From: a virus
IMG/VR virus record: IMGVR_UViG_3300004941_000002
Coordinates: 1-32,551 of that record
Strand: one strand, 5' to 3'
DNA: 32,551 bases
In this document: one piece after another, positions 1-32,551 of the stretch
Numbering within the stretch: position 1 is the stretch's first letter
Layout of the letters: each line of letters starts with the position of its first letter
Made by a program: the position numbers and the translations under genes
Notes under the pieces: generated by a model
What the model was told of the DNA's origin: nothing
Seen by the model: the letters and a program-made list of their open reading frames with translations, nothing else
Database searches by the model: none

Positions 1-91
1 TTTTGGTGGCATTGTTGCTAGAGGTTCATCGGTAATTCCTGCTGCAAACATAGTGGACATTTTAGATTGGCAAGACACTAATAAATACCCA
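1..91. repeat. Terminal direct repeat, copy 1 (identical to 32461..32551); circular-closure overlap
   Basis: Base-by-base comparison shows bases 1..91 match 32461..32551 exactly. The repeat lies inside a coding frame that reads through the junction. Confidence 0.95.
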
Positions 92-262
92 ACAGTCAGA
101 GTTTTGCAGGGTGCAACTAACTCGACTCAAAATTCTATCGGTTTAGTTTCGGGTTCTTGGAGAAACACCGCTACGATTACCTCGCTGACTTTGGCAGCAG
201 AGAGTGGCGATAGCTTCCGCATTGGTGGGCGTTTTTCTTTATACGGATTGAAGGCGGCATAA
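1..262 (+). CDS. 3' part of junction-spanning A-type tail-distal paralogue (A1); 5' part is 32117..32551
   Basis: The frame of ORF 53..262 is open from base 2 and is in phase with the ATG at 32117 once the 91-bp overlap is collapsed. The full product is 201 aa, the same length as paralogue A2 (1283..1888). It shares SMLAGNTA(F/Y)SPS, ASVTFS, Y(R/K)HLQIR and DILD..T.KY with A2. Confidence 0.85.
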   Translation, partial: FGGIVARGSSVIPAANIVDILDWQDTNKYPTVRVLQGATNSTQNSIGLVSGSWRNTATITSLTLAAESGDSFRIGGRFSLYGLKAA

Positions 263-750
263 TGGCAACGGGTACTTACACAGCTCTAGCTGAAACGACC
301 TTGACAAGCACGGCCTCAAGTGTAACTTTTTCTTCTATACCAACAACGGATGCCAACGGCAACTCTTTGCGGGATTTAGTATTGGTTACAAACATGTATG
401 CCAATCAGATAAACGAGGGCTTCGTAATTTTGAATGGTAGTTCCTCAGGCTTTACCGCTGTAAGGATGCTGGGTTATTCAAGTGGAGCAATTTCGGGAAC
501 CTATACAACCAACAACCTAGTGCCTACTCAAACATCTCCATCTGCCTACAAATTGCAATTTTTAGATTTTTCAGCAACCGATAAACATAAAATAATTCTT
601 ATGAATCATGGTAGGGCGGATGATGTTACAGCCAGTTATGCTGCTCGCTGGGCAAGCACATCAGCAATTACTTCTATCAAAATACAAACAACCAGCCCTT
701 ATGTATTTGTCGCTGGGGCCACATTTGCGTTATACGGGATTGCAGGGTAG
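262..750 (+). CDS. Tail-distal paralogue B1 (small beta-rich protein, function unknown; candidate receptor-binding or tip component)
   Basis: 162-aa ORF whose start overlaps the upstream stop (TAATG). It shares TL(T/S)STASSVTFSSIP and D(F/Y)SATDKHK with 1888..2370, and ends in the family motif GA.F.LYG. Confidence 0.85.
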   Translation: MATGTYTALAETTLTSTASSVTFSSIPTTDANGNSLRDLVLVTNMYANQINEGFVILNGSSSGFTAVRMLGYSSGAISGTYTTNNLVPTQTSPSAYKLQFLDFSATDKHKIILMNHGRADDVTASYAARWASTSAITSIKIQTTSPYVFVAGATFALYGIAG

Positions 751-752
751 CT

Positions 753-1283
753 ATGACACAGGCAATAACACCTATTGAACACATTGAATTGTCTTCAGCG
801 CAGGGAAGTATTCAATTTAGTTCAATCCCATCAGACTTCACCGACCTAATGATTTTGACTTCTTTACGAAGCGATAGGTCTGCCGTTGTAGACATTTTGG
901 AATTGCAACTAAATGGGGCAACAGCCAATAGGTCTAGTCGAAGCTTGCAGGGAGATGGCTCGGCTGCAACAAGCAGTAGCTATACATCAGGTCGTATTGC
1001 ATTGGATACGGCAGCAAGTGCGACTAGCAACATTTTCGGCAATGGACAGATTTACATTCCGAACTATGCGGGGTCGCTGCAAAAATCCGCTTTTGTCGAA
1101 TTGGTATCAGAAAATAATGCGACAAATGCCTACCAACAAATTTATTCGTTTAGGTGGGCAGACACCACAGCGGTAAATTCAGTTATTCTGATTCCAAATC
1201 TAGGAACTAATTGGGTGGCTGGAAGCTCAGCCACTTTGCTAGGCATCACAGCAGGCTCAGACGGAACAACGGCGGTGAGCTAA
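753..1283 (+). CDS. Tail-distal paralogue C1 (function unknown)
   Basis: 176-aa ORF. It shares FSSIP, GDG(S/A).A.S, IPNY..S..KS, ENNAT and the identical-type C-terminus GITAGSDGTTAVS with 2367..2912. Confidence 0.85.
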   Translation: MTQAITPIEHIELSSAQGSIQFSSIPSDFTDLMILTSLRSDRSAVVDILELQLNGATANRSSRSLQGDGSAATSSSYTSGRIALDTAASATSNIFGNGQIYIPNYAGSLQKSAFVELVSENNATNAYQQIYSFRWADTTAVNSVILIPNLGTNWVAGSSATLLGITAGSDGTTAVS

Positions 1284-1888
1284 TGGCAATCAAATCATTT
1301 ACTCGTAGCACGATAGAAAACAACATCTTCTACCGCTCTATGCTTGCAGGGAATACGGCATACTCACCCTCAACAGACGAGGATGTTCTTGCCGAGGAAA
1401 TCCTGACATCATCACAGGCTTCGGTCACCTTCTCAGGGCTTGACACTTTGGCTGCGGAATACAAGCACTTGCAGATTCGCTATACCTCTAGGATTGACGA
1501 AACAGTTGGGGGAGCTGGAACATTTTATGTCAATGTGAATAGCGATACAGGTTCAAATTATGCAAGACATTTTTTGCGTGGCAATGGTTCTACAGTCATA
1601 AGTGCCGCACTTACTAGCACTTCGACACCCGACATTGGTTATACGGCAGGTGCGGAAAGTGCCTCTGGCGTTTTTGGCGCAGGTGTAATTGACATACTGG
1701 ATGCTTTTGAGACTACAAAATACACAACGATGCGTAGCTCTAGTGGTTTAGCTTCGGGATACAAAGAAGTTTGGCTGGGTAGCGTTTTATGGATGAATAC
1801 AGCAGCTTTGACTTCTGTTAGTTTTGAAACATTTGGCGTTTGGAATTTTGTTTCTGGCTCAAGCTTTACCTTGATAGGAGTGAAATAA
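1283..1888 (+). CDS. Tail-distal paralogue A2 (function unknown)
   Basis: The ATG at 1283 overlaps the upstream TAA (TAATG), giving a 201-aa product. It aligns along its whole length with the junction-spanning A1. The track start at 1211 lies inside the upstream gene and is less likely. Confidence 0.85.
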   Translation: MAIKSFTRSTIENNIFYRSMLAGNTAYSPSTDEDVLAEEILTSSQASVTFSGLDTLAAEYKHLQIRYTSRIDETVGGAGTFYVNVNSDTGSNYARHFLRGNGSTVISAALTSTSTPDIGYTAGAESASGVFGAGVIDILDAFETTKYTTMRSSSGLASGYKEVWLGSVLWMNTAALTSVSFETFGVWNFVSGSSFTLIGVK

Positions 1889-2370
1889 TGGCAACTCCCG
1901 CATGGGTTCCGCTGGCTACGACAACGCTATCTAGCACAGCAAGCTCGGTCACTTTTTCTTCTATTCCTGCTGGGTATCGAGATTTGCGACTGATTATTTG
2001 GTTTAACAGCACAGTAAACGCTCAAGGAAGCATGAATTTCAATGGAGACGGCGGAAACAATTACAGCAGAGTTGCTATGTGGGGAACAGGCTCAACAGCG
2101 GGTTCAGGGACACAAACAGGCTCTAGCGTAAACATTGCCGCAGAAGCAACAATTACATCTACAAATGCAGCAATGTGCATTATTGACATAATGGATTATT
2201 CAGCAACTGATAAGCATAAGACAGGAATGGAAAGACTTACCGCTACAGCGGATGTAACATTAGCTCAGGCTTTCAGATGGGCTAATACTGCTGCAATAAA
2301 TAGCATTTCGCTTACAAGCCCTTTCGCCTCTGGTGCTACATTTAGCCTTTGGGGAAGGAACGCACTATGA
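1888..2370 (+). CDS. Tail-distal paralogue B2 (function unknown)
   Basis: The ATG at 1888 overlaps the upstream TAA, giving 160 aa. Motifs are TLSSTASSVTFSSIPAGYRDL, NFNGDGGNNY and DYSATDKHK. It pairs with B1. Confidence 0.85.
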   Translation: MATPAWVPLATTTLSSTASSVTFSSIPAGYRDLRLIIWFNSTVNAQGSMNFNGDGGNNYSRVAMWGTGSTAGSGTQTGSSVNIAAEATITSTNAAMCIIDIMDYSATDKHKTGMERLTATADVTLAQAFRWANTAAINSISLTSPFASGATFSLWGRNAL

Positions 2371-2912
2371 AAAAGACCCTAATAGAGCGTGTAGATGTTG
2401 GGGCTGGTGGGGCTGCAAGCATTACCTTTAGCTCGATACCGCAGACTTATGACGGGTTGTATTTACTCGTATCTGCTCGAATTTCAAGGGCTGGCAGCAC
2501 CTCTACAATTTTGGCTTTGCGATTCAATGGAGACACGGGCACAAATTATGCTTGGAGATTACTAAATGGTGACGGAGCTTCGGCAGCTTCTTATAGCTCT
2601 AGTTCTACAAGTTTAGCCTCAGCTGGGTATGCGAGTGGTCCCTCGGCAACTGCCAGCACCTTTTCTAATCACGGTATTCTTATCCCTAATTACACAAGTA
2701 GTTCTGCCAAGAGTATTTCTACGGATAGCGTGACGGAAAATAACGCTACGACTGTGACACTAAATCTCTCAGCTAGTTCGTGGTCTGGCACAGCTGCAAT
2801 AAGCAGTTTGACACTAGCTGAGCTAAGTGGCCCGAGCGACTTTGTGCAATACTCGTCAGCGAGTCTTTACGGCATCACCGCTGGTTCAGACGGCACAACA
2901 ACAGTAAGCTAA
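2367..2912 (+). CDS. Tail-distal paralogue C2 (function unknown)
   Basis: The ATG at 2367 overlaps the upstream TGA (ATGA), giving 181 aa. Motifs are SITFSSIPQTY, RFNGDTGTNY, IPNYTSSSAKS and ENNAT, with the C-terminus GITAGSDGTTTVS. It pairs with C1. Confidence 0.85.
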   Translation: MKKTLIERVDVGAGGAASITFSSIPQTYDGLYLLVSARISRAGSTSTILALRFNGDTGTNYAWRLLNGDGASAASYSSSSTSLASAGYASGPSATASTFSNHGILIPNYTSSSAKSISTDSVTENNATTVTLNLSASSWSGTAAISSLTLAELSGPSDFVQYSSASLYGITAGSDGTTTVS

Positions 2913-2932
2913 AATAGACATAGGAGATAAAC

Positions 2933-3172
2933 ATGGCAACTGCAAAACCAACCAAGCTGATTGTGGACTGCTCAACAGGTGAGCGCACAGTCGTAGAGCT
3001 GACCGCTGCTGAAATCGCAGAGCGTGAGGCAATGGCAGCCGAGGCTGAGGCACAGCGACAGGCTGAGGAAGAAGCTGCTGCTGCACTTCAGGCACTCAAG
3101 GATTCCGCTAAGGCAAAACTGATTGCTGGCGAGCCTCTGACGGCTGAAGAAGCAGACACACTCGTACTGTAA
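2933..3172 (+). CDS. Small Ala/Glu-rich protein between the fibre genes and the lysis cassette (function unknown)
   Basis: 79-aa ORF with an AGGAGA Shine-Dalgarno sequence upstream. It has a helical AEAEAQRQAEEEAAAA segment. Its position and composition recall the small XkdW-type proteins found after tail fibre genes, but this is recollection only. Confidence 0.6.
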   Translation: MATAKPTKLIVDCSTGERTVVELTAAEIAEREAMAAEAEAQRQAEEEAAAALQALKDSAKAKLIAGEPLTAEEADTLVL

Positions 3173-3219: not shown

Positions 3220-3456
3220 GTGAGCGATGATGACATGACCCCTAAATGGGCAGTCGAACTAATGATTCGGTTTGAGCGACTCGAAGCTCGCATTGCAACC
3301 AACGACGAGAGGCATCACTCACACGCTGAGTGGGCAACACGCAACATAAAAGACCATGAGATTCGTCTGCGTGCTATCGAGAAGAAGCTTTGGGGAGCTG
3401 TCGGTGCAGCAGGAATCATCGCAACGATAATCACTATGGTAGGTAGGGCTGTCTGA
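3220..3456 (+). CDS. XhlA-like lysis-associated membrane protein (coiled-coil N-terminus, single C-terminal TM)
   Basis: GTG start, 78 aa. A helical RFERLEARI...EIRLRAIEKKLW segment is followed by the hydrophobic stretch GAVGAAGIIATIITMVG. The gene sits immediately upstream of the endolysin and overlaps its start. Confidence 0.55.
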   Translation: MSDDDMTPKWAVELMIRFERLEARIATNDERHHSHAEWATRNIKDHEIRLRAIEKKLWGAVGAAGIIATIITMVGRAV

Positions 3457-4013
3457 TGTCTAAGCGAGTCTCCGACTGGCGACTACCTTACCCAGACAAA
3501 TACATCACGGGTCACTACGGCACGCTCTCAGACTTCCGTAGGGCACGAGGTATGCAACCACACTCGGGAACCGATTGGGCCAGACCTCGAGGCACACGCA
3601 TCCCTGCAATCGCTAAGGGGACCATCCGCCTTATTCAATACTCAAAGGTTCTCGGCTGGGTTGTCGTGCAATCTGCGATGGACAAAGACGGCAAGGTTTG
3701 GTATCTCGGATACTGCCACATGGACGAGCGACCTGGCTACAAGGTCGGCGACAAGCTAGCCAAAGGTCAGACCGTCGGCAAGATAGGCAACACAGGCGTA
3801 TCCTCAGGCCCTCACCTACACGCAACGGCATCGAAAACGCTGAAGGGAGTATTCGCTGAGACCTCAAGAAAAGTCGACCTCTACAAACTCATTCTGGAAA
3901 ACACCAAAGGGCCAGAGACAGAACAAGCGGACACGAAAGTCGAAAAGGTGGTGGAGCAGGTCGAGAGTAAAATAGTTTACGCCTGCCCTCACTGCAAGAA
4001 GGAATTATGTTGA
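3456..4013 (+). CDS. M23-family metallopeptidase endolysin
   Basis: HxxxD motif (HSGTD) and HxH motif (GPHLHAT) with GNTG just upstream. The gene is flanked by two small membrane-protein genes. Confidence 0.85.
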   Translation: MSKRVSDWRLPYPDKYITGHYGTLSDFRRARGMQPHSGTDWARPRGTRIPAIAKGTIRLIQYSKVLGWVVVQSAMDKDGKVWYLGYCHMDERPGYKVGDKLAKGQTVGKIGNTGVSSGPHLHATASKTLKGVFAETSRKVDLYKLILENTKGPETEQADTKVEKVVEQVESKIVYACPHCKKELC

Positions 4014-4360
4014 AAGAGTATCTAAAGCAATTCGGACTAAGGTCTCTTGGTCTTGCGATGGCTACTGCCTTTGGTGGCACGGCTATCGGTGCAGTTGCAG
4101 GTGACTGGCTGATGGGAACCATCATCGGTGTTGGCTCTGCCTTTGCCGTAGTGTTCACGACCCTAGGTGTGTCACTTGCTTGGAAGGGCGGGCTGGCAAT
4201 CAAGGACATCGAGAACGCCTACCGAGCTGCTGTTGCTAAGTCAGACTCCGAGGCGGTTCAGGATGCTCTTGAGGTCAATCAGGACGGCGACTTTGACTGG
4301 GACGACCTACCGAACGATTACGACCCAGACCTCGCAGACGACTCCTCTCCTTCGGCGTAA
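4007..4360 (+). CDS. Holin-like membrane protein (two predicted TM segments, acidic C-terminal tail)
   Basis: Hydrophobic stretches LGLAMATAFGGTAIGAVAG and GTIIGVGSAFAVVFTTLGVSLAW. The start overlaps the endolysin stop, and the C-terminus is Asp-rich. Confidence 0.6.
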   Translation: MLKEYLKQFGLRSLGLAMATAFGGTAIGAVAGDWLMGTIIGVGSAFAVVFTTLGVSLAWKGGLAIKDIENAYRAAVAKSDSEAVQDALEVNQDGDFDWDDLPNDYDPDLADDSSPSA

Positions 4361-4589
4361 GTCCACCCCAAATACCGTCTGTCTGATTCGTCTCCATAGC
4401 GAATGTCAGGCACTCTGTCTGCACAGGACATTGACTGCAAAACTTCTTTGCCACTCTAGCCTCACCTAAGCCACCGCCCGTTTCAGGGAACCATAGCTCG
4501 GGGTCAGTCTCCATACATACAGGATTTTGTCCCGACTTTTTTATTGCCTTCATTAGTTTCAGATAGTTGCGAGCGTCGTGCATACGCAC
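4275..4589 (-). CDS. whiB: WhiB-family Fe-S transcription factor (copy 1)
   Basis: Cys pattern C...CSQCPVQTEC followed by GIWGG and a basic tail (RLRGLGRNR). GTG start at 4589, or ATG at 4583. The 3' end overlaps the convergent gene 4007..4360 by 86 nt. Confidence 0.85.
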   Translation of the reverse strand: MRMHDARNYLKLMKAIKKSGQNPVCMETDPELWFPETGGGLGEARVAKKFCSQCPVQTECLTFAMETNQTDGIWGGLTPKERSRLRGLGRNRSVGRPSQSRRPD

Positions 4590-4619: not shown

Positions 4620-4880
4620 TTAGCGTTCGTCGGGTGAGGTTGCTCCCCAGATTCCGTAGCGTTGATTCGTCTCAAGGGCGTATGTAAAACACTCCGTGAC
4701 CATCTGACAGGACTTGCAGATTTTCTTTGCTGCCTTCGTTGCAAGCTGTCGTTTCTCAGGGTCGGGATAGTCCTCAGGGAAGAACAAGTCGGGGACCCTT
4801 TGGCACTCGGGGTCAACTTCGTTCGTCAATTTCAGGAAGGCCAAGTACTTTGAACTTGAAAGATGTCTGTGCCTAGCCAT
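4620..4880 (-). CDS. whiB: WhiB-family Fe-S transcription factor (copy 2)
   Basis: Cys pattern C...CKSCQMVTEC followed by GIWGA, 86 aa. It lies upstream of, and on the same strand as, copy 1, with a 30-nt gap. Confidence 0.85.
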   Translation of the reverse strand: MARHRHLSSSKYLAFLKLTNEVDPECQRVPDLFFPEDYPDPEKRQLATKAAKKICKSCQMVTECFTYALETNQRYGIWGATSPDER

Positions 4881-13546: not shown

Positions 13547-14698
13547 ATGAAAGTTGAACTTCTAAAAGTTAGCGAGCTAAGACTCGACCCCAATAATGCT
13601 AGAACTCATGATGATAACAACATTGAAGCAATTGCTGGAAGCCTCATGAGATTCGGCCAGCGCAAGCCGATTGTTATTTCGCAGGACAACACGGTAGTAG
13701 CGGGGAATGGCACGCTCACTGCTGCCAAGTCTTTAGGCTGGCAAAAAATTGAGGTAGTTCGTATTCCTGCAGACTGGGATGCCGACAGAATCAAAGCCTT
13801 TGCTCTAGCCGACAATCGCACGGCAGAGCTTGCATCATGGAATCAGCAGGTCATGTCAAGTCAATTGCTAGAGCTACAAGAGGCGGGTTTTGACATTGAA
13901 GAACTTGGATTTAGCCTTGAGCCAGAACCCTTAGATTTAGATTCAATACAAGAAGATGTAGTACCAGAAAATGTTGAAGCTAGAACTCGGCTTGGTGACA
14001 TTTGGAAACTTGGGAATCACCGCTTGCTTTGTGGTGATAGCACAGACCCTACATTGGTCTCAGAAATCATGGAAAATCAAAAAGCTGCGCTAGTTTTTAC
14101 CGACCCTCCTTATGGAGTCGAATACCAGTCAAACATGAGAATAAAATCTCAGAAATTTGATGTGCTAGAAAACGATGATAAGTTTCTCGATTTCGCTCCA
14201 GTAATTACCGCTCATTCAATTGGGTGGGTTTTTATTTGGACAAGTTGGAAAGTGCAAAATGTCTGGATTGACAAGCTGAAAGAATTTGGCTATCCAACTA
14301 ACATCATTGTTTGGCATAAACCAGGAGGCGGAATCGGCGACCTCAAAAAGACCTTTAGCAGTGATTATGAAGTTGCTCTCGTTTGGCACAGGGGCGCACA
14401 GCTCACTGGCAAGCGTATTGGTTCAGTTTGGACTATAAACAAAGATGGTTCAAGCTCTTACTTGCACCCAACTCAAAAACCCATAGCATTAGCGGCAGAG
14501 GCAATTGACAAGACAACCCATAGAGGGGCTCTCGTATTGGACTTGTTTGGCGGGTCAGGCTCAACCCTTATTGCTTGCGAAAAGACCAATCGTTTAGCAA
14601 GGGTTGTGGAGCTTGACCCTAAGTATTGCGATGTTATTGTGCAGCGTTGGGAAAACTTAACAGGTCAGAAAGCAGTATTAGTAAATGCCAGCAGGTAG
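13547..14698 (+). CDS. ParB-like nuclease domain fused to a DNA methyltransferase (DPPY type, N6-adenine or N4-cytosine)
   Basis: ParB-N motifs (DPNNARTH, GQRKPIVIS, VAGNGTLTAA), motif IV TDPPYGV, HPTQKP, and motif I LDLFGGSGST. Two sampled 60-nt lines are about 38 percent GC, against about 58 percent for one sampled backbone line. Confidence 0.85.
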   Translation: MKVELLKVSELRLDPNNARTHDDNNIEAIAGSLMRFGQRKPIVISQDNTVVAGNGTLTAAKSLGWQKIEVVRIPADWDADRIKAFALADNRTAELASWNQQVMSSQLLELQEAGFDIEELGFSLEPEPLDLDSIQEDVVPENVEARTRLGDIWKLGNHRLLCGDSTDPTLVSEIMENQKAALVFTDPPYGVEYQSNMRIKSQKFDVLENDDKFLDFAPVITAHSIGWVFIWTSWKVQNVWIDKLKEFGYPTNIIVWHKPGGGIGDLKKTFSSDYEVALVWHRGAQLTGKRIGSVWTINKDGSSSYLHPTQKPIALAAEAIDKTTHRGALVLDLFGGSGSTLIACEKTNRLARVVELDPKYCDVIVQRWENLTGQKAVLVNASR

Positions 14699-18005: not shown

Positions 18006-18719
18006 ATGTCGATTACCACAAATGTAGTAACAGTTGGCACAGCAGGTGCAACACTTATTGCACCGACTATCGACGCTCAAGATGCTTGGATTGAAAACCT
18101 TGAACCGAGCAATGATTTAGGTAGCTACTCTCGTGACGGCTACTCTTACGCAGCCAAAAGTTATTTCCCTATCGCCAACAACGGCACAGCGATTTTCTCC
18201 TTTACTACAGGCACAACTGGAGCGCAAATAGATAGCTGGGATTTTGACTCCAGAAATTCATCGGTTATTGGAGAACTTATTGAGGGTGCGACTATCACGA
18301 CTAGCGGAACTGCTATCCCAGGGTATAACCTGAATCGCAACGAGAGCGATGCCCACGATGCCTCTTTGGTAACCGCTTCAGCCCTAACTGGTGGAACTGT
18401 TGTTTATTCGACTTTTATTGGAGCTTCTAATCAGTCAACTGGCGGTGCATACTCAAATGTCATAATTACACTCGAGCCAAGCACTCAGTATGGATTCCGC
18501 TTTAGAGATGTTGGTGGCAACGGAACAAATGTTCACGCCGTAATTGGTTGGGTTGAGAAATACAATGGATTGAACGATGTCTACCTAAACGGAGCTACAG
18601 GCGCATCCGTAAGGCTAAGAGGTGGCGAGAAGATTCAACTAGAGCTACAGCAAGGAGAGGGAATCACGGCCTTTGCATCTCGTGAAGGTGTCCAAGTCGC
18701 CGTGATGAGACAGGACTAA
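18006..18719 (+). CDS. Beta-rich protein of unknown function inserted between portal and prohead protease
   Basis: 237-aa ORF, Gly/Thr/Ser/Asn-rich, with no recognised motif. Its start lies 1 nt after the portal stop, and its stop overlaps the protease ATG (TAATG). Confidence 0.7.
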   Translation: MSITTNVVTVGTAGATLIAPTIDAQDAWIENLEPSNDLGSYSRDGYSYAAKSYFPIANNGTAIFSFTTGTTGAQIDSWDFDSRNSSVIGELIEGATITTSGTAIPGYNLNRNESDAHDASLVTASALTGGTVVYSTFIGASNQSTGGAYSNVIITLEPSTQYGFRFRDVGGNGTNVHAVIGWVEKYNGLNDVYLNGATGASVRLRGGEKIQLELQQGEGITAFASREGVQVAVMRQD

Positions 18720-20263
18720 TGCCGTATTTCATTTGGGACGAACATCCAGACTGTGACAACTGGGCGGTAGTCAAAGAAGATGGTGAGCTTGTAGCTTGCC
18801 ATGACACTAAAGATTCAGCCGTTGACCAGATGGTCGCAATTTCAATAGCAGAGGAGATGGAACCAGGTGGCACTTATACCAGAGAAGGGCGGGCTGCTCC
18901 CGACGAACTCTCAGTCGGGGACTTCGTCCGCTGGAACAGCTCAGGGGGAACCGCAAGGGGTCGCATTGAAAGAATCGAGCGTGACGGCGAAATCAATGTC
19001 CCAGACTCAAGCTTCACAATCACAGGGACCGCTGACGACCCAGCAGCCCTCATCTCCGTCTGGCAAGAAGGCGAAGAAGGCTGGCAAGAGTCAGACACCC
19101 TAGTCGGACACAAGTTTTCAACACTAACTAAAATTGACAGCCTACGGTCACTGACAATAGAGACAAGAGAAGTCAACCTAACCCCACCTGCCTACATGAG
19201 AGCTGCTGCTCGAAGGGGACTCGAGTATTACGAGGAAGGACTCGGCGGAGATGGCTTGGTTGAAAGAACTATACGAGAAGCTCGGGCTATGGCTAGGGGT
19301 TCTGTTACTGCTGAGAAGTGGGTTAGGATTCGGGCTTGGATTGCTCGCCATCTGGTTGATTTGGACTCTCCCTCCGCACGACCTAGTTCGGACGATTATC
19401 CTAGTGCTGGTGTAGTCGCCCATCTACTATGGGGTTCAGGGCCATCGAAGGCTGCTGCTCGCCGTGCATTGGCGTATGCCGAAGGCGTTGTGAGTAGAAT
19501 AGAAGCAGAGAATGAAGGACGAGCGAAAGGCGAAGCATTGTCCAAAATTGAAACTCGTGTTCTCACGACTGACTTTGAGGTGCGAGAAGAAGCAGACGGT
19601 ATGCACCTTACTGGCTACGCTGCCAGATTCAATGAGCCGTCCGAGCCACTACCGTTTATTGAGCGGATTGCACCAGGGGCTTTCAAGCGTTCGCTAAAGT
19701 CACGCAACGACATAAAGCTTCTATGGAACCACGACAGCTCAACCGTCTTAGGTTCAACTCGTGCGGGAACTCTAACCCTCACAGAGGACAATCAAGGTCT
19801 ACGGGTCAACGCAGTCTTGCCAGACACTCAGGCAGGCCGTGACGCAAAAGTCCTAATTCAGCGTGGGGATGTTACAGGATTCTCCTTCGGCTTTACCGTG
19901 CCTAAGGGTGGGGACACATGGAACGAGGACGGGACCGAAAGAACCCTAAACTCAATTCGCCTAATGGAGGTCAGCACGGGAGTCGCCTTCCCTGCGTACC
20001 CGACAACTAATGGCACTGCACAAGTTCGTGGCCTAGACAAGCTTGCTAAGAGGGCAGAGGTCGACGCAGACGCTCTGGCTGATGCAATGATGAAACTTGA
20101 GGAGGGCGAAGAAATTACCGCTGAGGAAAAGGACATCCTTAGTAGAGTTATCTCAGAGCTAGCACCGAAGCAGGAGGAAGCTCCAACCGAGGAGCCAAAG
20201 GGCGACCTCGCTATGTTGCAACTCAAGAAGAAGAAGCTAGAACTACTCCTGAAGGGACTATAA
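18719..20263 (+). CDS. HK97-type prohead serine protease (S78) with an N-terminal extension of about 270 aa and a coiled-coil C-terminus
   Basis: The C-terminal half carries GYAARFNE...GAFKRSL...LLWNHD...GFSFGF...MEVSTGVAFPAYPTT. The N-terminal half has no protease motif. Confidence 0.8.
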   Translation: MPYFIWDEHPDCDNWAVVKEDGELVACHDTKDSAVDQMVAISIAEEMEPGGTYTREGRAAPDELSVGDFVRWNSSGGTARGRIERIERDGEINVPDSSFTITGTADDPAALISVWQEGEEGWQESDTLVGHKFSTLTKIDSLRSLTIETREVNLTPPAYMRAAARRGLEYYEEGLGGDGLVERTIREARAMARGSVTAEKWVRIRAWIARHLVDLDSPSARPSSDDYPSAGVVAHLLWGSGPSKAAARRALAYAEGVVSRIEAENEGRAKGEALSKIETRVLTTDFEVREEADGMHLTGYAARFNEPSEPLPFIERIAPGAFKRSLKSRNDIKLLWNHDSSTVLGSTRAGTLTLTEDNQGLRVNAVLPDTQAGRDAKVLIQRGDVTGFSFGFTVPKGGDTWNEDGTERTLNSIRLMEVSTGVAFPAYPTTNGTAQVRGLDKLAKRAEVDADALADAMMKLEEGEEITAEEKDILSRVISELAPKQEEAPTEEPKGDLAMLQLKKKKLELLLKGL

Positions 20264-21072: not shown

Positions 21073-22239
21073 ATGTCTGAGTTCATCAAGACTCAGTACG
21101 AAGTCCGCAACAACCTCATCATGCAGGTTCGTGAGGTCATTGACCTTGCCGAAACTGAAGGTCGTGGTTTGGACTCCGCTGAGCTAGAAAAGATTGACAG
21201 GATTGAGGCTGACATCCGCAAGGCGGACGAGGCTATTTCTGTCGCAGAGCGTAATGAGGAGCGTCGCCTAGAGGCTTCCGTCGCTGCAAAGGGCTTCGTG
21301 CCAACCGTATCCGAGGACCGTTCGGCTGCTGACATCCTTCGTGCAATCGCACAGGGTGAGCAGAGGGACCACACCTTCGAGCGTCGTGCAGCTCTTACTC
21401 CATCCACCAACACCGTTCCAAAGTCGTTCTACGACCAGGTATTCGATGTTGCTCGTCTGACTTTCCCGCTGGACGAGTTCGAGGTTATCAACACCACTTC
21501 TGGTGAGGACCTAACCATCCCAACCTTGACCGCATACTCCGCTGCATCTCTAGTAGCTGCTGCTGGAACCGTATCGGCCTCAGAGCCTACCTACGCAAGC
21601 ATCACCCTAGGTGCTTACAAGTACGGTATGCTCGCACAGGCTGCTTCCGAGCTAGTAAGCGACGCAGGTTTCGACCTAGCATCGCACCTTGCAAACCAGG
21701 CTGGTAACGGCATTGGTTACGCAGTAGGTTCGGCTGTAACCCTTGGCGACGGCTCAAGCAAGCCTCAGGGTGTTGTAGCTGCTGCTGGTTCTGGTGTCAC
21801 TGGTGGCACTGGTGTCTCAGGTGGCTTCACCGCTGACAACCTCATTGACCTCGCCTACAGCGTCGATGGACAGGTTCGCAGAATGAGTCCAGCGTTCATG
21901 GCTAACGGTGCAACCATCGGTGCTATGCGTAAGCTCAAGGACGGCGCAGGAAACTACCTCTACCAGATTGGTCAGTTCGGACCTGCTGGTGGCGACACCT
22001 TCGCAGGCTACCGTGTCGTGGAGAACCCACACATGGCTGACATTGCAACTTCCGCAAAGTCGGTTGTTTTTGGCGACCTTAAGTCTCACAAGGTCAGGAT
22101 TGCAGGCGGTTTGTCTGTGGCCTCATCTACAGACTATGCCTTCAACACTGACTTGGTTACATGGAGATTCCTCATCAGAATTGACTCTGATTTGACCCAT
22201 GCAGCCCATGTCAAATACTTCGCAGGTGCAGCTAGCTAG
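21073..22239 (+). CDS. Major capsid protein (HK97 fold) with a coiled-coil N-terminal delta-like domain
   Basis: 388 aa. The helical N-terminus (about 100 aa), the GDGSSKPQGVV motif, strong AAGGAGA Shine-Dalgarno sequence and flanking terminators all fit a major capsid gene. Confidence 0.9.
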   Translation: MSEFIKTQYEVRNNLIMQVREVIDLAETEGRGLDSAELEKIDRIEADIRKADEAISVAERNEERRLEASVAAKGFVPTVSEDRSAADILRAIAQGEQRDHTFERRAALTPSTNTVPKSFYDQVFDVARLTFPLDEFEVINTTSGEDLTIPTLTAYSAASLVAAAGTVSASEPTYASITLGAYKYGMLAQAASELVSDAGFDLASHLANQAGNGIGYAVGSAVTLGDGSSKPQGVVAAAGSGVTGGTGVSGGFTADNLIDLAYSVDGQVRRMSPAFMANGATIGAMRKLKDGAGNYLYQIGQFGPAGGDTFAGYRVVENPHMADIATSAKSVVFGDLKSHKVRIAGGLSVASSTDYAFNTDLVTWRFLIRIDSDLTHAAHVKYFAGAAS

Positions 22240-24276: not shown

Positions 24277-24689
24277 CGGTTTACACGGGCGGAACCTTCG
24301 ACCTCTTTCACAGGGGTCACGCTAACTTCTTGAAACGTTGCAAGGAGATAGGAGAAGTCACCGTTGCCCTAAACACCGATGAGTTCATCTGGGAGTATAA
24401 GAACAAGATGCCCATAATGACCTACACCGAGCGTGAAGAAGTCCTCATAGCTTGCAGGTATGTCGACAGGGTTATCCCTAACTTCGGCGGGGCCAACTCA
24501 AAGCCAAGCATTGAGCTAGTGCAACCCGACATCATCATCATTGGGTCAGATTGGGCTAGGCGTGACTACTATGCTCAAATGCAATTCGACCAAGATTGGT
24601 TGGACGAGAGACAGATTGCACTCTGCTACATCCCCTATACAGACGGGATTAGCTCTACTAAGGTCAAGGGTCGATTAGCGGTAGACTAG
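24273..24689 (+). CDS. tagD: Glycerol-3-phosphate cytidylyltransferase-like nucleotidyltransferase (TagD-like)
   Basis: GGTFDLFHRGH (HxGH), NTDEF, CRYVDRVIP, IGSDW and PYTDGISSTKVK are collinear with TagD motifs. The ATG at 24273 overlaps the upstream TGA. Confidence 0.8.
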   Translation: MTVYTGGTFDLFHRGHANFLKRCKEIGEVTVALNTDEFIWEYKNKMPIMTYTEREEVLIACRYVDRVIPNFGGANSKPSIELVQPDIIIIGSDWARRDYYAQMQFDQDWLDERQIALCYIPYTDGISSTKVKGRLAVD

Positions 24690-26599: not shown

Positions 26600-27202
26600 A
26601 TGGGTTCAAGCTTGAGTGGTTCATCTGATGTAATCAAGGTTTTGAAAACCTATGAGAAAGATTTATACAAAGAGCTAGGCAAGAGCCTAGACTCAAAGTT
26701 GCGACCCATTATGGGGCCTATACAGGGTCAAATAAATGGAAGTGTGGCAGGTCAGCTAAGAAGCCGTAGGGATGCTGGTATGTTCAATCACAGCGGGCGA
26801 ACCTCGTGGGGCGGGGCAGAGGTCAAGGTCAAGACATCAGCAAGTCCTAAGAACCTTATTTTCATTGAGGGCAAGGGTCCTGGTAGCGGAGATTATGGCA
26901 AGCTAGGTTTCAATTATGCAGAGCTGGCTGGTATCCGTCGCAAACCTCCCCGACCAATTTCAAAGGGTTGGAACGAAACCTCAGCAGGTGGCTATCACGC
27001 ATACTTTGTTCGTGGTCAAGGTGATGGGTTTATCAAGATGCTCAATCGCTACGGTGGCCCAGGTAGGTTCTTGTGGAAGCGTGTCTTGAATCGCAAGCCA
27101 GAGATTGAGGAAAAGGTTATACAAATAGCGGAGTCTTACAATCTGAAAATTACACGCCGACTAACTACCTCGGTTAGCAACAAAGACATGGAAGTCAAAT
27201 AA
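26600..27202 (+). CDS. Hypothetical protein (200 aa) inserted between the tail chaperone and the tape measure
   Basis: Clear ORF with a Shine-Dalgarno sequence, basic and Gly-rich, with no recognised motif. Its stop overlaps the tape measure ATG (TAATG). Confidence 0.7.
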   Translation: MGSSLSGSSDVIKVLKTYEKDLYKELGKSLDSKLRPIMGPIQGQINGSVAGQLRSRRDAGMFNHSGRTSWGGAEVKVKTSASPKNLIFIEGKGPGSGDYGKLGFNYAELAGIRRKPPRPISKGWNETSAGGYHAYFVRGQGDGFIKMLNRYGGPGRFLWKRVLNRKPEIEEKVIQIAESYNLKITRRLTTSVSNKDMEVK

Positions 27203-30114
27203 TGAGTATTAAGATTCGCATTGTCTCCGACTTTGATAAGAAGGGACTAACAGAGGCAGAGAAGGCCCTCGGTAGCCTCTCTAAAGCAGCGGGTGTTGCA
27301 CTTGCAGCTGTTGGTGCAGCAGTCGCAGGTATCGCTGTCAAGTCGGTTCAAGAGTTCGCTAAGTTTGACGGTGCTCTTACCAAGTCTCAAGCCATCATGG
27401 GTGACCTCACCAAGACGATGGAAGAGGACATGGCTAAGGCTGCCCGTGAGGTAGCCAAGCAAACTACATTCTCAGCCGAACAAGCTGCCGAGTCGTTCTT
27501 CTTCCTAGCGTCCGCAGGTTTGGATGCTGAAGCCTCTATCGCTGCCCTGCCTCGAGTAGCCCAGTTCGCTCAGGCGGGTATGTTCGACATGAGCCGAGCT
27601 ACCGACCTCTTGACAGACGCTCAATCCGCTCTTGGCCTCACCATCCGTGACGATGCTGTCGCAAACATGGAGAACATGATAAAGGTGTCGGATGTCCTCG
27701 TCCGTGCGAACACCTTGTCAAACGCCACAGTCGAGCAGTTCTCTACCTCGCTGACCACTAAGGCTGGTCCTGCTCTTAGAACTCTAGGTAAGGACATGGA
27801 AGAAGGTGTCGCTGTATTGGCAGCGTTCGCCGACCAGGGTATCAAGGGCGAGGAAGCTGGAACCCAGCTCTCCATCGTTCTGCGTGACCTCTCGACTAAG
27901 GCCATCAAAAACAAAGAGGACTTCGCACAATTCGGTGTCTCGGTATTTGACGCTAACGGCGAGATGCGTAACCTCGGCGACATCATTGCCAACCTTGAAA
28001 CTGCTCTTGCGGGAATGTCCGACGAGACGGCAAAGGCTACCCTTCTTCAGCTTGGATTCGCAGACCGCTCGGTCCAGTCAATCCTTGCCCTCTTGGGAAC
28101 CTCAGATGCAATCAAGGGCTACGAAGAAGCACTCCGTTCCTCAAGTGGCTTCACAGACCAAGTAGCAAACAAGCAACTTGACACTTTCAACTCACAGCTA
28201 CGCCTACTTGAGTCAGCCTTTATAGATGTAGGTATTCAGATTGGTGAGGAGCTTACTCCTTACTTGCAAGACCTTATTCCAGTCATACAAGACCTGCTAC
28301 CGATTGTCGGTGAGAAGCTTGCAGATGCCTTCAAGAAGGTTGACTGGGAAGGCTTGATTGAGGCAGTCGGCGAGTTCATCGCTCTAATTGTCGACAACCT
28401 TGACAACATCGGCAGGTTAGTCGGAGTCATTGCTGGCATCTCAGGAGCACTTGTCACCTACACGGTTGTAACAAAGATTGCCACAACCGCTCAAAAGATT
28501 TTCAACTCAACGCTACTGCTCAATCCTTGGGGACTAGCAGCTGTCGCACTAGCAGGATTCACCTACCTCCTAATCAGGAACAATGGCGAAGTAGACAAGG
28601 CAACAGAGAACTATCGACAGCTCAACTCGCAGATTGACCAGAGTAATTACACTCAGAAGAATCTCGCCGACACCTACCGTGAGTCTGCTTATGTAGCTGG
28701 CAAGTATGGAGTTGAGACTGACGACCTGAGAAATGCAAACCTCAAGCTCGCAGGTGCAGCAGGCATGGTTTCGGGCGAGATAAATCGCTTCAATCAAATA
28801 AAGCTAGATAGCCTACGCAACGAACTCAATGCAACAAAGACTACCGCTGAGCAACTAAACGATACAGCTAGGGAGTATGGACTAGCTCGTCTTGGCCTAT
28901 TGAAGGGCACGCCGTCAGGTGCAGGACTCGAGGTGCAAGCATCTCTCATTACTACCCCGAGTGGGCCGTCTGTATTTGAACAGACTCGTGACAGAGTTCG
29001 AAGCCTTATCAAGGATTCTCAAAAGCAACTTGCTAACGCACAGAAGCAATACAACAAGACCGTCCAAGACGCTAACGAAAACTACGCCTCATCGGTTGAA
29101 CGACTGCAACTCGAGTATGCAAACCGACTCGAAGGCATAATCAGGCAATCTCAGCAAAGACTGACCGACGCATACAAGTCTGCTGTTGCGGTCAACATCT
29201 CATCGCTATTTGAGCGTGACGAGAACAAGTCCGTAGAGGGCCTAGTCAAGTCCCTAAGCGACAAACTCACGGCCTCTCGTAATCTCCTATCAAACTCCGC
29301 AGAACTCGCCTCAGCGGGCTTCTCACAGACCTTCATTGAGCAGGTCGTTTCGGCTGGAACCGAGACGGGTAACGAGCTTGCCTCGGCAATCTTGAACTCC
29401 ACACCAGATGTGCAGCGTGAACTGCAAACCCTATTCGGTGCTTTGGAGATTGAGTCTGAGCAGGGAATGGATGCTCTTGCTGAAAGCATCTATGAACGGC
29501 AAGGACTTGCAACTCAAGCACTTGTAGCTCTTTACGCTCAAACTCAAGCCGAGCAAGCCAACGCAATGATTGACTTGCAAACCCAGCTCGATGAGACTCT
29601 AACTAACGCTGCCACTACCTTGCAAGACAGCATAAAGTCAATCAAGGATAATGTCCTCGAGCAGATTGCAGAAATGGACTCTGGTCTTGGCGGACTTGGT
29701 AAGACCGTCGACATGTTTATCGGCAAGCTAGACAAGCTCATTACAAAGTATGGTGAAGCTAAAGAGGCTATGGAGGTTCCTGACATACCCGCTCCTGCAC
29801 CTGCTCCTGCACCTGCACCTGCACCGTCACCTGCCCCGTCACCTGCACCTACTCCTAAGAAGATTCCAGAGCCAGACATCAAGTTCCTGCCACAACAAGA
29901 CATCATTCCAAAGTTCAAGCCTTTGACTAATGCCGAAATCGAAGCCATCAAAAGGGATTCGTTTGACCCAGGTAGCCGAACAATTATCAACCTCAATGTC
30001 AAGACTGACGCAACACAATCGCCGTCAATGGTTGGTTCATCAATCGCTAACGCCATTAGTAAATACACAACAAAGGGCGGAGGAATTAGCGGGTTCAAGG
30101 TGATTGCGGTCTAA
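27202..30114 (+). CDS. Tape measure protein
   Basis: 970 aa, the largest ORF in the window. It is helical and Ala/Leu/Gln-rich with internal hydrophobic segments, and lies between the chaperone and distal tail genes. Confidence 0.9.
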   Translation: MSIKIRIVSDFDKKGLTEAEKALGSLSKAAGVALAAVGAAVAGIAVKSVQEFAKFDGALTKSQAIMGDLTKTMEEDMAKAAREVAKQTTFSAEQAAESFFFLASAGLDAEASIAALPRVAQFAQAGMFDMSRATDLLTDAQSALGLTIRDDAVANMENMIKVSDVLVRANTLSNATVEQFSTSLTTKAGPALRTLGKDMEEGVAVLAAFADQGIKGEEAGTQLSIVLRDLSTKAIKNKEDFAQFGVSVFDANGEMRNLGDIIANLETALAGMSDETAKATLLQLGFADRSVQSILALLGTSDAIKGYEEALRSSSGFTDQVANKQLDTFNSQLRLLESAFIDVGIQIGEELTPYLQDLIPVIQDLLPIVGEKLADAFKKVDWEGLIEAVGEFIALIVDNLDNIGRLVGVIAGISGALVTYTVVTKIATTAQKIFNSTLLLNPWGLAAVALAGFTYLLIRNNGEVDKATENYRQLNSQIDQSNYTQKNLADTYRESAYVAGKYGVETDDLRNANLKLAGAAGMVSGEINRFNQIKLDSLRNELNATKTTAEQLNDTAREYGLARLGLLKGTPSGAGLEVQASLITTPSGPSVFEQTRDRVRSLIKDSQKQLANAQKQYNKTVQDANENYASSVERLQLEYANRLEGIIRQSQQRLTDAYKSAVAVNISSLFERDENKSVEGLVKSLSDKLTASRNLLSNSAELASAGFSQTFIEQVVSAGTETGNELASAILNSTPDVQRELQTLFGALEIESEQGMDALAESIYERQGLATQALVALYAQTQAEQANAMIDLQTQLDETLTNAATTLQDSIKSIKDNVLEQIAEMDSGLGGLGKTVDMFIGKLDKLITKYGEAKEAMEVPDIPAPAPAPAPAPAPSPAPSPAPTPKKIPEPDIKFLPQQDIIPKFKPLTNAEIEAIKRDSFDPGSRTIINLNVKTDATQSPSMVGSSIANAISKYTTKGGGISGFKVIAV
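29788..29856 (+). repeat. Pro-Ala/Pro-Ser dipeptide repeat tract within the tape measure (PAPAPAPAPAPAPSPAPSPAPTP)
   Basis: 23 consecutive codons of CCN-GCN/TCN/ACN, read directly from the sequence. Confidence 0.9.
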
Positions 30115-31346
30115 TGGCTATCCCAGCACCTAAAGTCGAAATTGGTTTCGACATTCTGTCGAGCGGTTTCGGACCGTACTTTATCCTCGATGACCCCCTC
30201 AAGGGCAAGCTAGACAACACGGACTACTTGCTTGCGGGAACAATCTTCTTCGATGTCACAGACTCCGTTCGTAGCATTGCAATAAAGCGAGGAAAGAACC
30301 AGTCACTTGACCAATACGAGGCGGGACTAGCTAATGTCGTGTTCAACAACAACGACAGAACCTTTGACCCTGAATACCCAAGCTCGCCTTACTTCGGACA
30401 GATTATTCCTAAGAGGCAGATTCGTATTAGTTCGGCTGGCGAGGTAGCCTTTACGGGAATTATTGACGACTGGGGTTTGAACTACCAGCCAGATGGGGAT
30501 TCAACAGCCTCAGCTGCTTGCTCTGACGCTTTGGTTTACTTCTCTAAGCAGAACCTCAGCGAGCGTACGAACTCCGTGCAGGCTTCAGGTGACAGGCTTG
30601 CAACAATACTTTCATTGCCTGAGGTCAACTGGCCCGTTACAGAGCGTGACATTGAGACGGGCAACATGACTCTCGGGGCTGACACAATCACCGAGGGAAC
30701 AAACGCACTTGACTACATACGACGCATTACAAAGTCAGAGCCAGGGTCGTTCTTTGTTGCTAAGGCGGGCGGAGTTGTTTACCGTGACCGTCGGACAGGG
30801 CCAACCTCAGAGGGTATCCACCTAGCCAATGATGGTAGTGGCATCCCCTATACAAACATGGTGGTTGAGTATGGCTCTGAGTTGCTATACAACCAAGTCA
30901 GCGCAACTTCTACATTCCTTGAAACGGGAGTTACTGCGGAGTCAGCAACCTCGATTGACACCTACGGTATTTTCAACCTGACTCGTAACGACCTGCTAAT
31001 CAACGCTGACGCAGACCTCGAGGCGTATGTCTCGTTCTTGGCTAACAAGTTCAAAGACCCTGAGTATCGATTCAAGTCCGTGCAGATTCAGCTTGACCAA
31101 AGAACCCCTGCTCAACAGGCGGACATCCTTGGTCTGGAAATTGGAGATGTCGTCGGAATCGACTTCACCCCTAACGGCATTGGGCCTGCGATTGAGAAGC
31201 ACGCCGAGGTCATTGGCATCGACCACTCGGTGACTGCAATCTCGCACACGGTCACTCTCAGCTTCGCAACACTCGACTTCTCACTGCTCGTCTTAGATGA
31301 TGCGGTGTTTGGTAAGCTAGACAGTGGAAACGCTTTGGCGTTCTAA
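30114..31346 (+). CDS. Distal tail protein (Dit-like minor tail protein)
   Basis: 410 aa, TAATG coupled to the tape measure. VTDSVRSIAIKRGKN...AGLANVVFNNNDRTFDP is typical of the first minor tail protein after the tape measure in actinophages. Confidence 0.7.
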   Translation: MAIPAPKVEIGFDILSSGFGPYFILDDPLKGKLDNTDYLLAGTIFFDVTDSVRSIAIKRGKNQSLDQYEAGLANVVFNNNDRTFDPEYPSSPYFGQIIPKRQIRISSAGEVAFTGIIDDWGLNYQPDGDSTASAACSDALVYFSKQNLSERTNSVQASGDRLATILSLPEVNWPVTERDIETGNMTLGADTITEGTNALDYIRRITKSEPGSFFVAKAGGVVYRDRRTGPTSEGIHLANDGSGIPYTNMVVEYGSELLYNQVSATSTFLETGVTAESATSIDTYGIFNLTRNDLLINADADLEAYVSFLANKFKDPEYRFKSVQIQLDQRTPAQQADILGLEIGDVVGIDFTPNGIGPAIEKHAEVIGIDHSVTAISHTVTLSFATLDFSLLVLDDAVFGKLDSGNALAF

Positions 31347-31357
31347 AGGAGAAATTC

Positions 31358-31771
31358 ATGGCAGGTTTGGGTAGAAAAGTCTGGTCCGCAGGAGATGTTC
31401 TTGCAGCAGCAGACCTTCAGGGCTATGTCCAAGACCAGGTGGTTATGGTCTTTGACGACGCAACAGCTAGGTCATCAGCCATTGGAACTCCGACAGAGGG
31501 TATGGCCTCGTACTTAAAAGACAGCAACACCCTCGAGCTTTTCGATGGCGCAGTCTGGTTTAGTGCCGACAGCGAGATTCCCTCGCAGTCTGGTGAGGGT
31601 GGCAACTACCTCACAACCGATGGAACTGCCCTATCGTGGTCAGCCGTAGATGCTCTGCCTAGCCAAACTGGTGAAGGTGGCAAGTACCTAACCACAGACG
31701 GAACAGCAGCTTCGTGGGCTACAATTACTACAGACCCTACGCCTTCAGTATTTCTTTTGATGGGAGCATAA
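31358..31771 (+). CDS. Small tail fibre-like protein with a duplicated G-G-x-Y-L-T-T-D-G-T-A-x-S-W motif
   Basis: 137 aa. Two copies of PSQ(S/T)GEGG(N/K)YLTTDGTA(L/A)SW lie 26 aa apart. I recall this motif type as common in phage fibre proteins. Confidence 0.65.
   Translation: MAGLGRKVWSAGDVLAAADLQGYVQDQVVMVFDDATARSSAIGTPTEGMASYLKDSNTLELFDGAVWFSADSEIPSQSGEGGNYLTTDGTALSWSAVDALPSQTGEGGKYLTTDGTAASWATITTDPTPSVFLLMGA
31580..31717 (+). repeat. Tandem 78-nt (26-aa) repeat inside the fibre-like gene
   Basis: Repeat units start at 31580 and 31658. Each encodes the GGxYLTTDGTAxSW motif. Confidence 0.8.
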
Positions 31772-31772
31772 A

Positions 31773-32105
31773 TTGGCAACAGCTTACAAAATTCTCGGGC
31801 AGTCAGCCCCGAGTGCGACAACGGAGACTGACCTTTACACAGTCCCTGCTGCAACCGAGGCAGTCATCTCTAGCCTTATTGTTTGCAACCGCTCGGCTTC
31901 CGATGCGACCTACAGAATCTCGGTAGCTGCTGATGGCGCAACTACCGCAAACGCACAGTACCTAGCCTACGATGTCACAGTCGGTGCTTCCGATTCGACA
32001 ACACTCACCCTCGGTATCACAATCAACGCCACCGATGTAGTGCGTGTTTATGCCTCAACTGCCGACCTGACATTCAGCGCATTTGGTTCTGAAATAACCG
32101 CTTAG
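31773..32105 (+). CDS. Small beta-rich tail-associated protein (110 aa, function unknown)
   Basis: TTG start 1 nt after the upstream stop. YKILGQSAPSATTETDLYTVPA...VISSLIVCNRS...YRISV is a pattern I recall from small proteins in aquatic phage tail regions, but I cannot name the family. Confidence 0.6.
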   Translation: MATAYKILGQSAPSATTETDLYTVPAATEAVISSLIVCNRSASDATYRISVAADGATTANAQYLAYDVTVGASDSTTLTLGITINATDVVRVYASTADLTFSAFGSEITA

Positions 32106-32116
32106 GAGGGCTACGC

Positions 32117-32551
32117 ATGGGCGTTGTAAAGCTCTCTACCGCTGGGATACTTGACTATCAGAAGTATTCGTCAATGCTTGCGGGTAACACTGCGTTTAGT
32201 CCTAGCTCATACGACCTGCTTGAAACAGAGATACTGACAGGCACGACAGCAAGCGTGACCTTCAGCTCGCTAGGGTCTTATGCTGCTGATTATCGGCACT
32301 TGCAGATTAGATGGGTCGCTGGTAATACCAACGCAGCTACAAACATTGATAATGTCAAACTAAATTTCAACGGAGACACGGGAGCAAACTACTCTTCTCA
32401 CAGACTACTGGGTTCTGGGTCTAGCGTAAATTCTTACGCCGCTTCTAATGCAAGTTATTGTTTTGGTGGCATTGTTGCTAGAGGTTCATCGGTAATTCCT
32501 GCTGCAAACATAGTGGACATTTTAGATTGGCAAGACACTAATAAATACCCA
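32117..32551 (+). CDS. 5' part of junction-spanning A-type paralogue (A1); continues into 92..262
   Basis: ATG at 32117 preceded by TAGGAGGG. The frame is open to the window end and is therefore absent from the ORF track. It translates as MGVVKLSTAGILDYQKYSSMLAGNTAFSPSS...ASVTFSSLGSYAADYRHLQIRW...NFNGDTGANY. Confidence 0.85.
   Translation, partial: MGVVKLSTAGILDYQKYSSMLAGNTAFSPSSYDLLETEILTGTTASVTFSSLGSYAADYRHLQIRWVAGNTNAATNIDNVKLNFNGDTGANYSSHRLLGSGSSVNSYAASNASYCFGGIVARGSSVIPAANIVDILDWQDTNKYP

Follow-up and report, generated by a model that had tools for sequence, protein, structure and literature searches.

Six paralogous genes in a circular siphovirus genome

The IMG/VR virus record IMGVR_UViG_3300004941_000002 (positions 1 to 32,551; this whole stretch of 32,551 nucleotides is called the window) carries six consecutive small paralogous genes, which belong to three types (A, B and C) and follow each other in the order A-B-C-A'-B'-C'. 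Across related loci the conserved unit is the triad A-B-C and not the hexad, six copies being a minority state. Judging from sequence comparisons, we lean somewhat towards the view that A, B and C form a compact 1:1:1 receptor-binding knob that would be anchored via A, with two divergent versions in this phage.

Bases 1-91 of the window are identical to bases 32461-32551. This exact 91-bp direct repeat is the assembly overlap of a circularly closed contig with a genome of 32,460 bp, so that one copy of it has to be dropped when the A gene at the junction is translated. The genome is that of a complete siphovirus, with genes for both terminase subunits (small and large), the portal, a protease, the major capsid protein and a head-tail adaptor as well as for the major tail protein and a tape measure of 970 amino acids (aa). 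The six genes are the following:

32117..32551, plus strand: A1 (type A, 201 aa), 5' part, continuing at base 92 (equivalently 32117..32460 joined to 1..262); N-terminal anchor peptide MGVVKLSTAGILDYQKYSSMLAGNTAFSP
1..262, plus strand: A1, 3' part (bases 1-91 repeat 32461-32551)
262..750, plus strand: B1 (type B, 162 aa), no extensions
753..1283, plus strand: C1 (type C, 176 aa), C-terminal tail GITAGSDGTTAVS
1283..1888, plus strand: A2 (type A, 201 aa), anchor MAIKSFTRSTIENNIFYRSMLAGNTAYSP
1888..2370, plus strand: B2 (type B, 160 aa), for which a beta-sandwich of 12 strands is predicted
2367..2912, plus strand: C2 (type C, 181 aa), tail GITAGSDGTTTVS

The coordinates, lengths and order of these genes had been proposed in a first-pass annotation made from the sequence alone and were confirmed, with the correction that the junction gene has 201 aa only after removal of the 91-bp repeat. 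The junctions are also as described there: TAATG at A1/B1, C1/A2 and A2/B2, ATGA at B2/C2, and TAG-CT-ATG (a 2-nt gap) at B1/C1. A GGAGG Shine-Dalgarno motif lies 8 nt upstream of A1, and the start codons chosen for the six genes agree with those of orthologues (e.g., in loci L018 and L069).

The proposed pairing of A with A', B with B' and C with C' is borne out by identities of 40-43% within types compared to 23-36% across types (BLASTP E values of 6e-30 for A1-A2, 5e-14 for B1-B2 and 2e-20 for C1-C2, and 3e-7 to 0.2 across types). The motifs listed as common to all six proteins are present, except that NGD.G.NY is degenerate in B1 and C1. The idea that the whole three-gene unit had been duplicated needs amending, since the second triad did not arise by simple local duplication: A2 shares 68% identity with the A protein of a single-triad phage (L029) and A1 57% with that of L069, but A1 and A2 share only 41%. 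Because the two triads are not each other's closest relatives, the second set is either an old duplicate or was acquired by recombination. Pfam searches with the six proteins at E <= 1 gave no match, and searches of PHROGs and NCBIfam assigned no family (only a marginal near-match of A2 to a long-tail-fibre PHROG, E = 0.003).

The triad is conserved in number and order

For a survey of the family, which comprised 81 loci in all, 80 loci were fetched from IMG/VR and scanned with a hidden Markov model (HMM) of the family. Exactly three adjacent copies on the same strand were found in 72 of the 80 loci, two copies in three loci, and five or six in the rest; the loci without three copies have either six or an array cut by the contig end. 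Clustering of 251 complete domains from the 81 loci into three groups by the unweighted pair group method with arithmetic mean (UPGMA) reproduced gene position exactly, an agreement well outside anything chance would give: the first gene was A in 71 of 71 cases, the second B in 72 of 72 and the third C in 68 of 68. Positions 1-3 were A, B and C in every six-copy locus, and type-specific HMMs agreed. At the A/B and B/C boundaries the intergenic distance is in most cases -4, -1 or 0 to +3 nt. The ancient triplication suggested in the first-pass annotation is thus upheld, A, B and C being orthologous groups in fixed order in more than 70 phages, and the survey of copy number in related phages that it had recommended shows three to be the rule and six the exception.

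Strict 1:1:1 co-occurrence of orthologous types in a fixed order would not be expected if A, B and C were independent receptor-binding proteins (RBPs), each forming its own homo-oligomer and acting as a separate adhesin that broadens host range, an explanation that we consider quite unlikely. It would account for the fact that A, B and C have their nearest neighbours in different phages, a sign that they may in part have been exchanged independently, and for the occurrence of the same domain, as a single copy, at the C-terminus of collagen-like and Stf-repeat fibre proteins; fibre proteins of these kinds are normally homotrimers, and multiple RBPs per phage are common. B and C, however, lack an anchor or stalk in about 75 loci and would have no means of their own of joining the virion, and relatives with three domains in a single chain (see below) pack as one body.

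Gene fusions in the family are of two kinds. In the close syntenic relative L081/L082, A and B are followed by a genuine C+A' fusion, then by B', an inserted HNH gene, C' and finally g79 (the conserved gene after the triad); the fusion translates with the standard code, and the fused A' lacks the anchor. The HNH endonuclease genes (1558-1998 and 2788-3303 in L081, 2682-3122 in L082) lie between B' and C' and after g79, which suggests homing-endonuclease traffic in the module. The B+C 'fusion' proteins of the public set, in contrast to the C+A' fusion, appeared to be Rosetta-stone evidence and were rejected as gene-calling artefacts. At the junction of the L083 'fusion' (1982-3001) the residue given as 'Q' is the in-frame TAG stop codon of B, followed by ACT ATG, and all other genes of that contig end with TAA. 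Many 'two-domain' proteins in the database (P0006-P0021) likewise have the TAG stop of B read as Gln, the next gene starting in frame 3-12 nt later. With such a recurrent in-frame TAG-NNN-ATG arrangement, low-level read-through could in principle occur. A scan of reference-genome contigs with a B-type pattern, which reaches close relatives only, found one contig of a metagenome-assembled genome and no evidence of carriage as a prophage.

Position in the tail module and the downstream gene g79

All six genes are co-oriented and lie between the tape-measure/tail-tip genes and the lysis genes, a position that fits a tail-fibre or receptor-binding module. The flanking genes in the window are:

27202..30114, plus strand: tape measure protein (start of the tail-tip module)
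30114..31346, plus strand: g410, conserved 410-aa tail-tip protein directly after the tape measure
31358..31771, plus strand: g137, conserved small tail-tip gene (137 aa) upstream of the triad
31773..32105, plus strand: g110 (110 aa), resembling the N-terminus of tail-fibre proteins (PHROGs 1276, 11338 and 693)
2933..3172, plus strand: g79, conserved 79-aa partner gene directly after the triad
3220..4013, plus strand: lysis genes at the downstream border of the module (a DUF7201-like protein of 78 aa; an M23 peptidase endolysin)

The order that recurs across loci is tape measure, g410, g137, (g110), A, B, C, g79, holin-like, M23. A profile search with g410 against the PDB gave no match.

A homologue of g79, a conserved gene of 77 aa, lies directly downstream of C in 69 of the 81 loci. 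L020/L021 carry two copies of the unit, g110 and g79 included, and the duplicated module comprises g110 and a fibre gene and is situated away from the lysis genes. The g79 protein shows a conserved N-terminal beta segment (PTKLVVDCSTGE.T.VPLT.EE), an Ala/Glu-rich helix and an LGLT..E..AL-like end, and no match to it was found in Pfam, PDB or NCBIfam. This conserved fourth gene, which the first-pass annotation missed, is taken to be part of the module; its product may help assembly or may itself be a fourth subunit.

The proximity to the lysis cassette, together with the lack of recognizable attachment modules in B and C, would also suit late proteins that are not part of the virion at all (lysis-associated proteins, superinfection-exclusion proteins or secreted decoy lectins). 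We regard this as very improbable: the domain is found fused to FN3, glycine-rich, collagen-like and Stf-repeat fibre proteins, the genes are co-oriented and translationally coupled with the tail-tip genes, the duplicated module of L020/L021 is not next to lysis genes, and no signal peptides or transmembrane segments were noted in the six translations (by eye, without a predictor).

Type-specific extensions and the anchor of A

Every A protein carries an N-terminal extension, which is either a short hydrophobic peptide of the M.IPLGIL.AAGAGG type, a longer peptide that ends in ...(L/M)LAGN..(F/Y), or a whole stalk (made of FN3 repeats in L080, with five, and in L020, with one, and of two Gly_rich_2 domains in L040). 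The proteins of the window are of the long type, A1 and A2 sharing SMLAGNTA(F/Y)SP. B is never extended, and only C bears C-terminal additions: a tail of 9-10 aa of the (K/A)GS(D/S/G)G.VT.S type, as in the window, is present in 44 of 75 C proteins, and eight C proteins have large extensions (seven with Gly_rich_2-like domains, one with another domain in L009). The glycine-rich domains fused to the C-terminus of C in L010, L024, L059, L060, L070 and L072 are Gly_rich_2-like (PF21722) by eye; domains of this family recur as alternative modules in the same system.

From these comparisons the earlier proposal that the A-type extension acts as an anchor is well supported. The extension is restricted to A, is exchanged for FN3 or glycine-rich stalks, is missing in the C+A' fusion, is common to other fibre proteins in phage E7 (see below), and co-varies with the upstream gene g110. 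The latter is immediately upstream in four of five distinct loci with the long LAGN anchor but in none of the 45 loci with the short one, the loci being phylogenetically non-independent, and it is a candidate docking platform for LAGN-type anchor peptides. A regular expression for the anchor motif, run over all open reading frames, found no match, the pattern being too strict.

The C-terminal glycine-rich fusions bear on a different function of the triad. A, B and C together might form a structural node or spacer, the true binder or enzyme being located elsewhere (in the Gly_rich_2 domain or in the next triad), with the two triads of the window stacked in series. The fusions in the six loci just listed are what such an arrangement would produce, and covalent links between successive units are seen both in the C+A' fusion and in 57 clusters of domain-FN3-domain proteins (C-FN3-A fusions). 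In the window and most other loci, however, nothing is distal to C but a tail of 9-13 aa; A2 has kept a homologue of the A1 anchor, which speaks for docking on a like site and not on C1; and the hypervariable loops (see below) look like a binding surface. We therefore think this explanation unlikely, with some residual chance.

Relatives in cultured phages of freshwater Actinobacteria

Among GenBank phages, a tblastn search with C2 found only OX376640 and OX376641, the acI phages E7 and F5; neither a blastn search with the region nor tblastn with B2 gave a match. E7 and F5 infect 'Ca. Planktophila' (acI; LanE-43), and both phages and host are in culture (PMC10202952). In E7 the gene order is a g110 homologue, two Gly_rich_2 proteins, A with an anchor, B, C and a g79 homologue (E = 9e-27), and the two Gly_rich_2 proteins and A share the N-terminal motif M.I.S(L/I)K...LL(A/V)GN. 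The free-standing proteins are located as follows:

L084, 6163-7893: Gly_rich_2 proteins with anchor in phage E7

The study of these phages mentioned 'three proteins encoding DUF2541' in a 5-kb hypervariable metagenomic island, possibly tied to host recognition (PMC10202952), offering the label with no further analysis. Like that trio, the A-B-C triad of E7 lies beside a tail-fibre gene and two glycine-rich ('collagen-like') genes, and we infer that the two are the same. The Pfam model of DUF2541 matched neither the window proteins nor the E7 triad at E <= 1.

Predicted fold of the domain

B2 was modelled with AlphaFold2 from an alignment of 102 sequences, and the model was compared with the PDB and BFVD by Foldseek. 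The protein is predicted to form an all-beta sandwich of 12 strands (predicted local distance difference test score, pLDDT, 93.3; predicted template modelling score, pTM, 0.87). Matches in the PDB were consistent but weak (galectin-8 and -9, MIC1-GLD, the N-terminal domain of coronavirus spike, SHBG LG; probability 0.8-1.0, template modelling (TM) score 0.38-0.47, root-mean-square deviation 7-11 A), so that the fold may be called remotely galectin/ConA-like. A TNF/C1q-like jelly-roll, which the first-pass annotation had put forward as a candidate, was rejected on this comparison: galectin-type folds ranked on top, and the best match of the TNF family, RANKL (4e4d), had a probability of 0.23 and a TM score of 0.23. 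In BFVD the matches reached TM scores of 0.7-0.92. Some were uncharacterized proteins from uncultured phages; others were C-terminal domains of proteins whose annotation is tail fibre, collagen-like, glycine-rich, FN3 or lambda Stf repeat, which places the domain at the distal end of fibres. Synteny and these fibre matches fit the role in tail fibres or receptor binding that had been proposed for the genes as a receptor-binding or tip module.

Each type has two hypervariable segments between conserved core motifs; in B2 they comprise approximately residues 41-50 and 71-100. A sequence search of the PDB with the family profile gave no match, and there was no membership in the Pfam families Gal-bind_lectin or Laminin_G_*.

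A large family with three-domain single chains

Searching with a profile of the six sequences brought up more than 7,500 proteins, none of which has a name, and an HMM search of 1.84 billion representatives (clusters at 50% identity) gave approximately 39,800 matches at E <= 1e-3, of which 10,221 had E <= 1e-30. The family has no name, annotation or solved structure and escapes Pfam, PHROGs and NCBIfam; PHROGs searches with 102 family members yielded only 5 and 3 weak matches to two PHROGs of unknown function.

Among the best 150 representatives, about 60 consist of one chain of 485-560 aa in which exactly three domains stand in tandem, connected by conserved, genuine linkers (VVDERYL and VP(K/R).L); about 20 are larger proteins with three internal domains, and three proteins have six. 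The three-domain chain P0139 was modelled from an alignment of 35 sequences as one compact body (pLDDT 91.6, pTM 0.92), the pTM indicating that the relative positions of all three domains are confidently fixed. Foldseek found no global analogue of this model in the PDB (TM score <= 0.19), and partial resemblances were to laminin LG, the galectin-8 tandem and neurexin L2-L3.

Distant members of the family (P0156, P0170, P0130, P0132 and P0135) have 1,100-2,150 aa with 3, 6 or 11 tandem domains. By eye, P0156 shows an N-terminal hydrophobic segment and C-terminal transmembrane-like segments; P0170 contains a Laminin_G_3 domain in addition. Cell-surface or other non-phage proteins may thus make use of the domain as well.

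A proposed heteromeric receptor-binding knob

In the arrangement that we favour, the paralogues A, B and C, each a subunit of about 170 aa with a galectin/ConA-like beta-sandwich, would assemble into one three-part knob at the distal end of the tail, the overlapping stop and start codons favouring equimolar synthesis. A would tie the knob to the virion by its N-terminal peptide, here of the SMLAGNTA(F/Y)SP type, probably docking on g110. B, having no attachment element of its own, would be recruited through A and C. C would face outward, its C-terminus bearing a short conserved tail in this phage and entire additional domains in relatives, and g79 might serve as an assembly factor or as a fourth component. 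The variable loops would recognize the host surface, perhaps a glycan, the lectin-like fold being suggestive of such a ligand. Since the two triads of the window are only 40-43% identical, they could form two knobs with different variable loops and thereby widen or alter receptor specificity; they may be the two alternative sets proposed in the first-pass annotation or two knobs in series, the homologous anchors speaking for docking on like sites.

The hetero-oligomer of A, B and C had already been postulated in the first-pass annotation, and the strict co-occurrence of the three types and the compact packing of three domains in single-chain relatives agree with it, as indirect evidence. Several points weigh against it. 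The case for a heterotrimer is a comparative one, and with TM scores of only about 0.4 for the lectin fold, glycan binding is a guess. The domains of P0139-type chains could not be assigned to A, B and C (differences in HMM score were <= 20 bits), the single-chain three-domain relatives may represent an independent triplication, and some large proteins of the family have 4, 7 or 11 domains, which are not multiples of three. Where Gly_rich_2 follows C, the triad may be an intermediate node and not the terminal receptor binder. Finally, the mirror-tree analysis was uninformative: the distance matrices of A, B and C correlated with each other at 0.26-0.45, not above their correlations with g410 (0.31-0.48), i.e., without a specific signal of co-evolution.

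Other genes of the window

Just past the lysis genes, two adjacent genes of the WhiB family (4275-4589 and 4620-4880, minus strand) indicate an actinobacterial host; the pair is also present in the relative L081. In the part of the structural module that separates the major capsid gene from the head-tail adaptor gene, a GT4 glycosyltransferase gene (22442-23632, plus strand) is adjoined by genes for a galactosyltransferase-like protein (23587-24276, plus strand) and a cytidylyltransferase (24267-24689, plus strand). These three genes may constitute a virion-glycosylation cassette, and one might speculate that the Ser/Thr-rich C-terminal tails of the C-type proteins are among its substrates. 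A ParB-like nuclease domain fused to a DNA methyltransferase is encoded just upstream of the terminase genes (13547-14698, plus strand). The C-terminal half of a 514-aa protease-like protein (18719-20263, plus strand) also matches major-head-protein PHROGs, and a separate major capsid gene (388 aa; 21073-22239, plus strand) is located approximately 800 bp past it.

Comparison with known systems and significance

The nearest precedent in logic is the receptor-binding fibre of the virophage DSLV2 and a related Synechococcus phage, a 1:1:1 heterotrimer according to co-purification and AlphaFold3 (AF3) modelling (PMC12724248). Both systems consist of three consecutive, co-oriented paralogous genes conserved as a set (the proteins of the DSLV2 fibre having about 200 aa). 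The DSLV2 fibre has a collar domain (PF07484) and a gp37-like fold, neither of which is present in the window proteins; the subunits of the latter are predicted to be globular beta-sandwiches, and only one of them bears an anchor.

In the globular head of C1q the A, B and C chains, the products of tandem paralogous genes, form a heterotrimer; TNF-like trimers are comparable. The likeness is one of analogy only, in that three tandem paralogous genes would give rise to one pseudo-threefold beta-sandwich head; relatives of the phage domain do sit behind collagen-like repeats, whereas the window proteins have no collagen stalk. For both the single domain and the three-domain model, the best resemblance to solved structures is to galectin/ConA-like (LamG) lectins, tandem galectins and laminin LG1-3, although the TM scores given above are low for one domain and still lower for the three-domain unit, and there is no match to their sequence families. 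In the dual tailspikes of Klebsiella phages and the tailspike protein (TSP) complex of Ackermannviridae, RBP modules share a conserved N-terminal anchor and a common docking site. A1, A2 and the two glycine-rich proteins of E7 likewise share the LAGN anchor, but here the anchor is a peptide of approximately 25-45 residues on one subunit of a presumed heteromer and not a folded trimeric adapter domain.

Phage RBPs are usually taken to be homotrimers, and there is one recent, structurally unrelated precedent for gene-encoded heterotrimeric adhesins (PMC12724248). The triad may, as a tentative proposal to which we would give somewhat less than even weight, be the first recognized case of a large uncharacterized class of obligate heteromeric receptor-binding knobs: asymmetric pseudo-trimers without a solved counterpart, in which A would be the anchor, B the core and C the distal subunit, with an exchangeable N-terminal plug and a dedicated g79 partner, and in which host range would change by swap or addition of triads. 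In phages of the most abundant freshwater Actinobacteria, the family is probably located in the island possibly tied to host recognition. Its definition would allow thousands of 'hypothetical' genes in aquatic viromes to be annotated as host-recognition genes and would provide a handle on the host range of uncultured actinophages, and the family may serve as a model for the diversification of adhesins by subunit asymmetry and plug-in anchor peptides.

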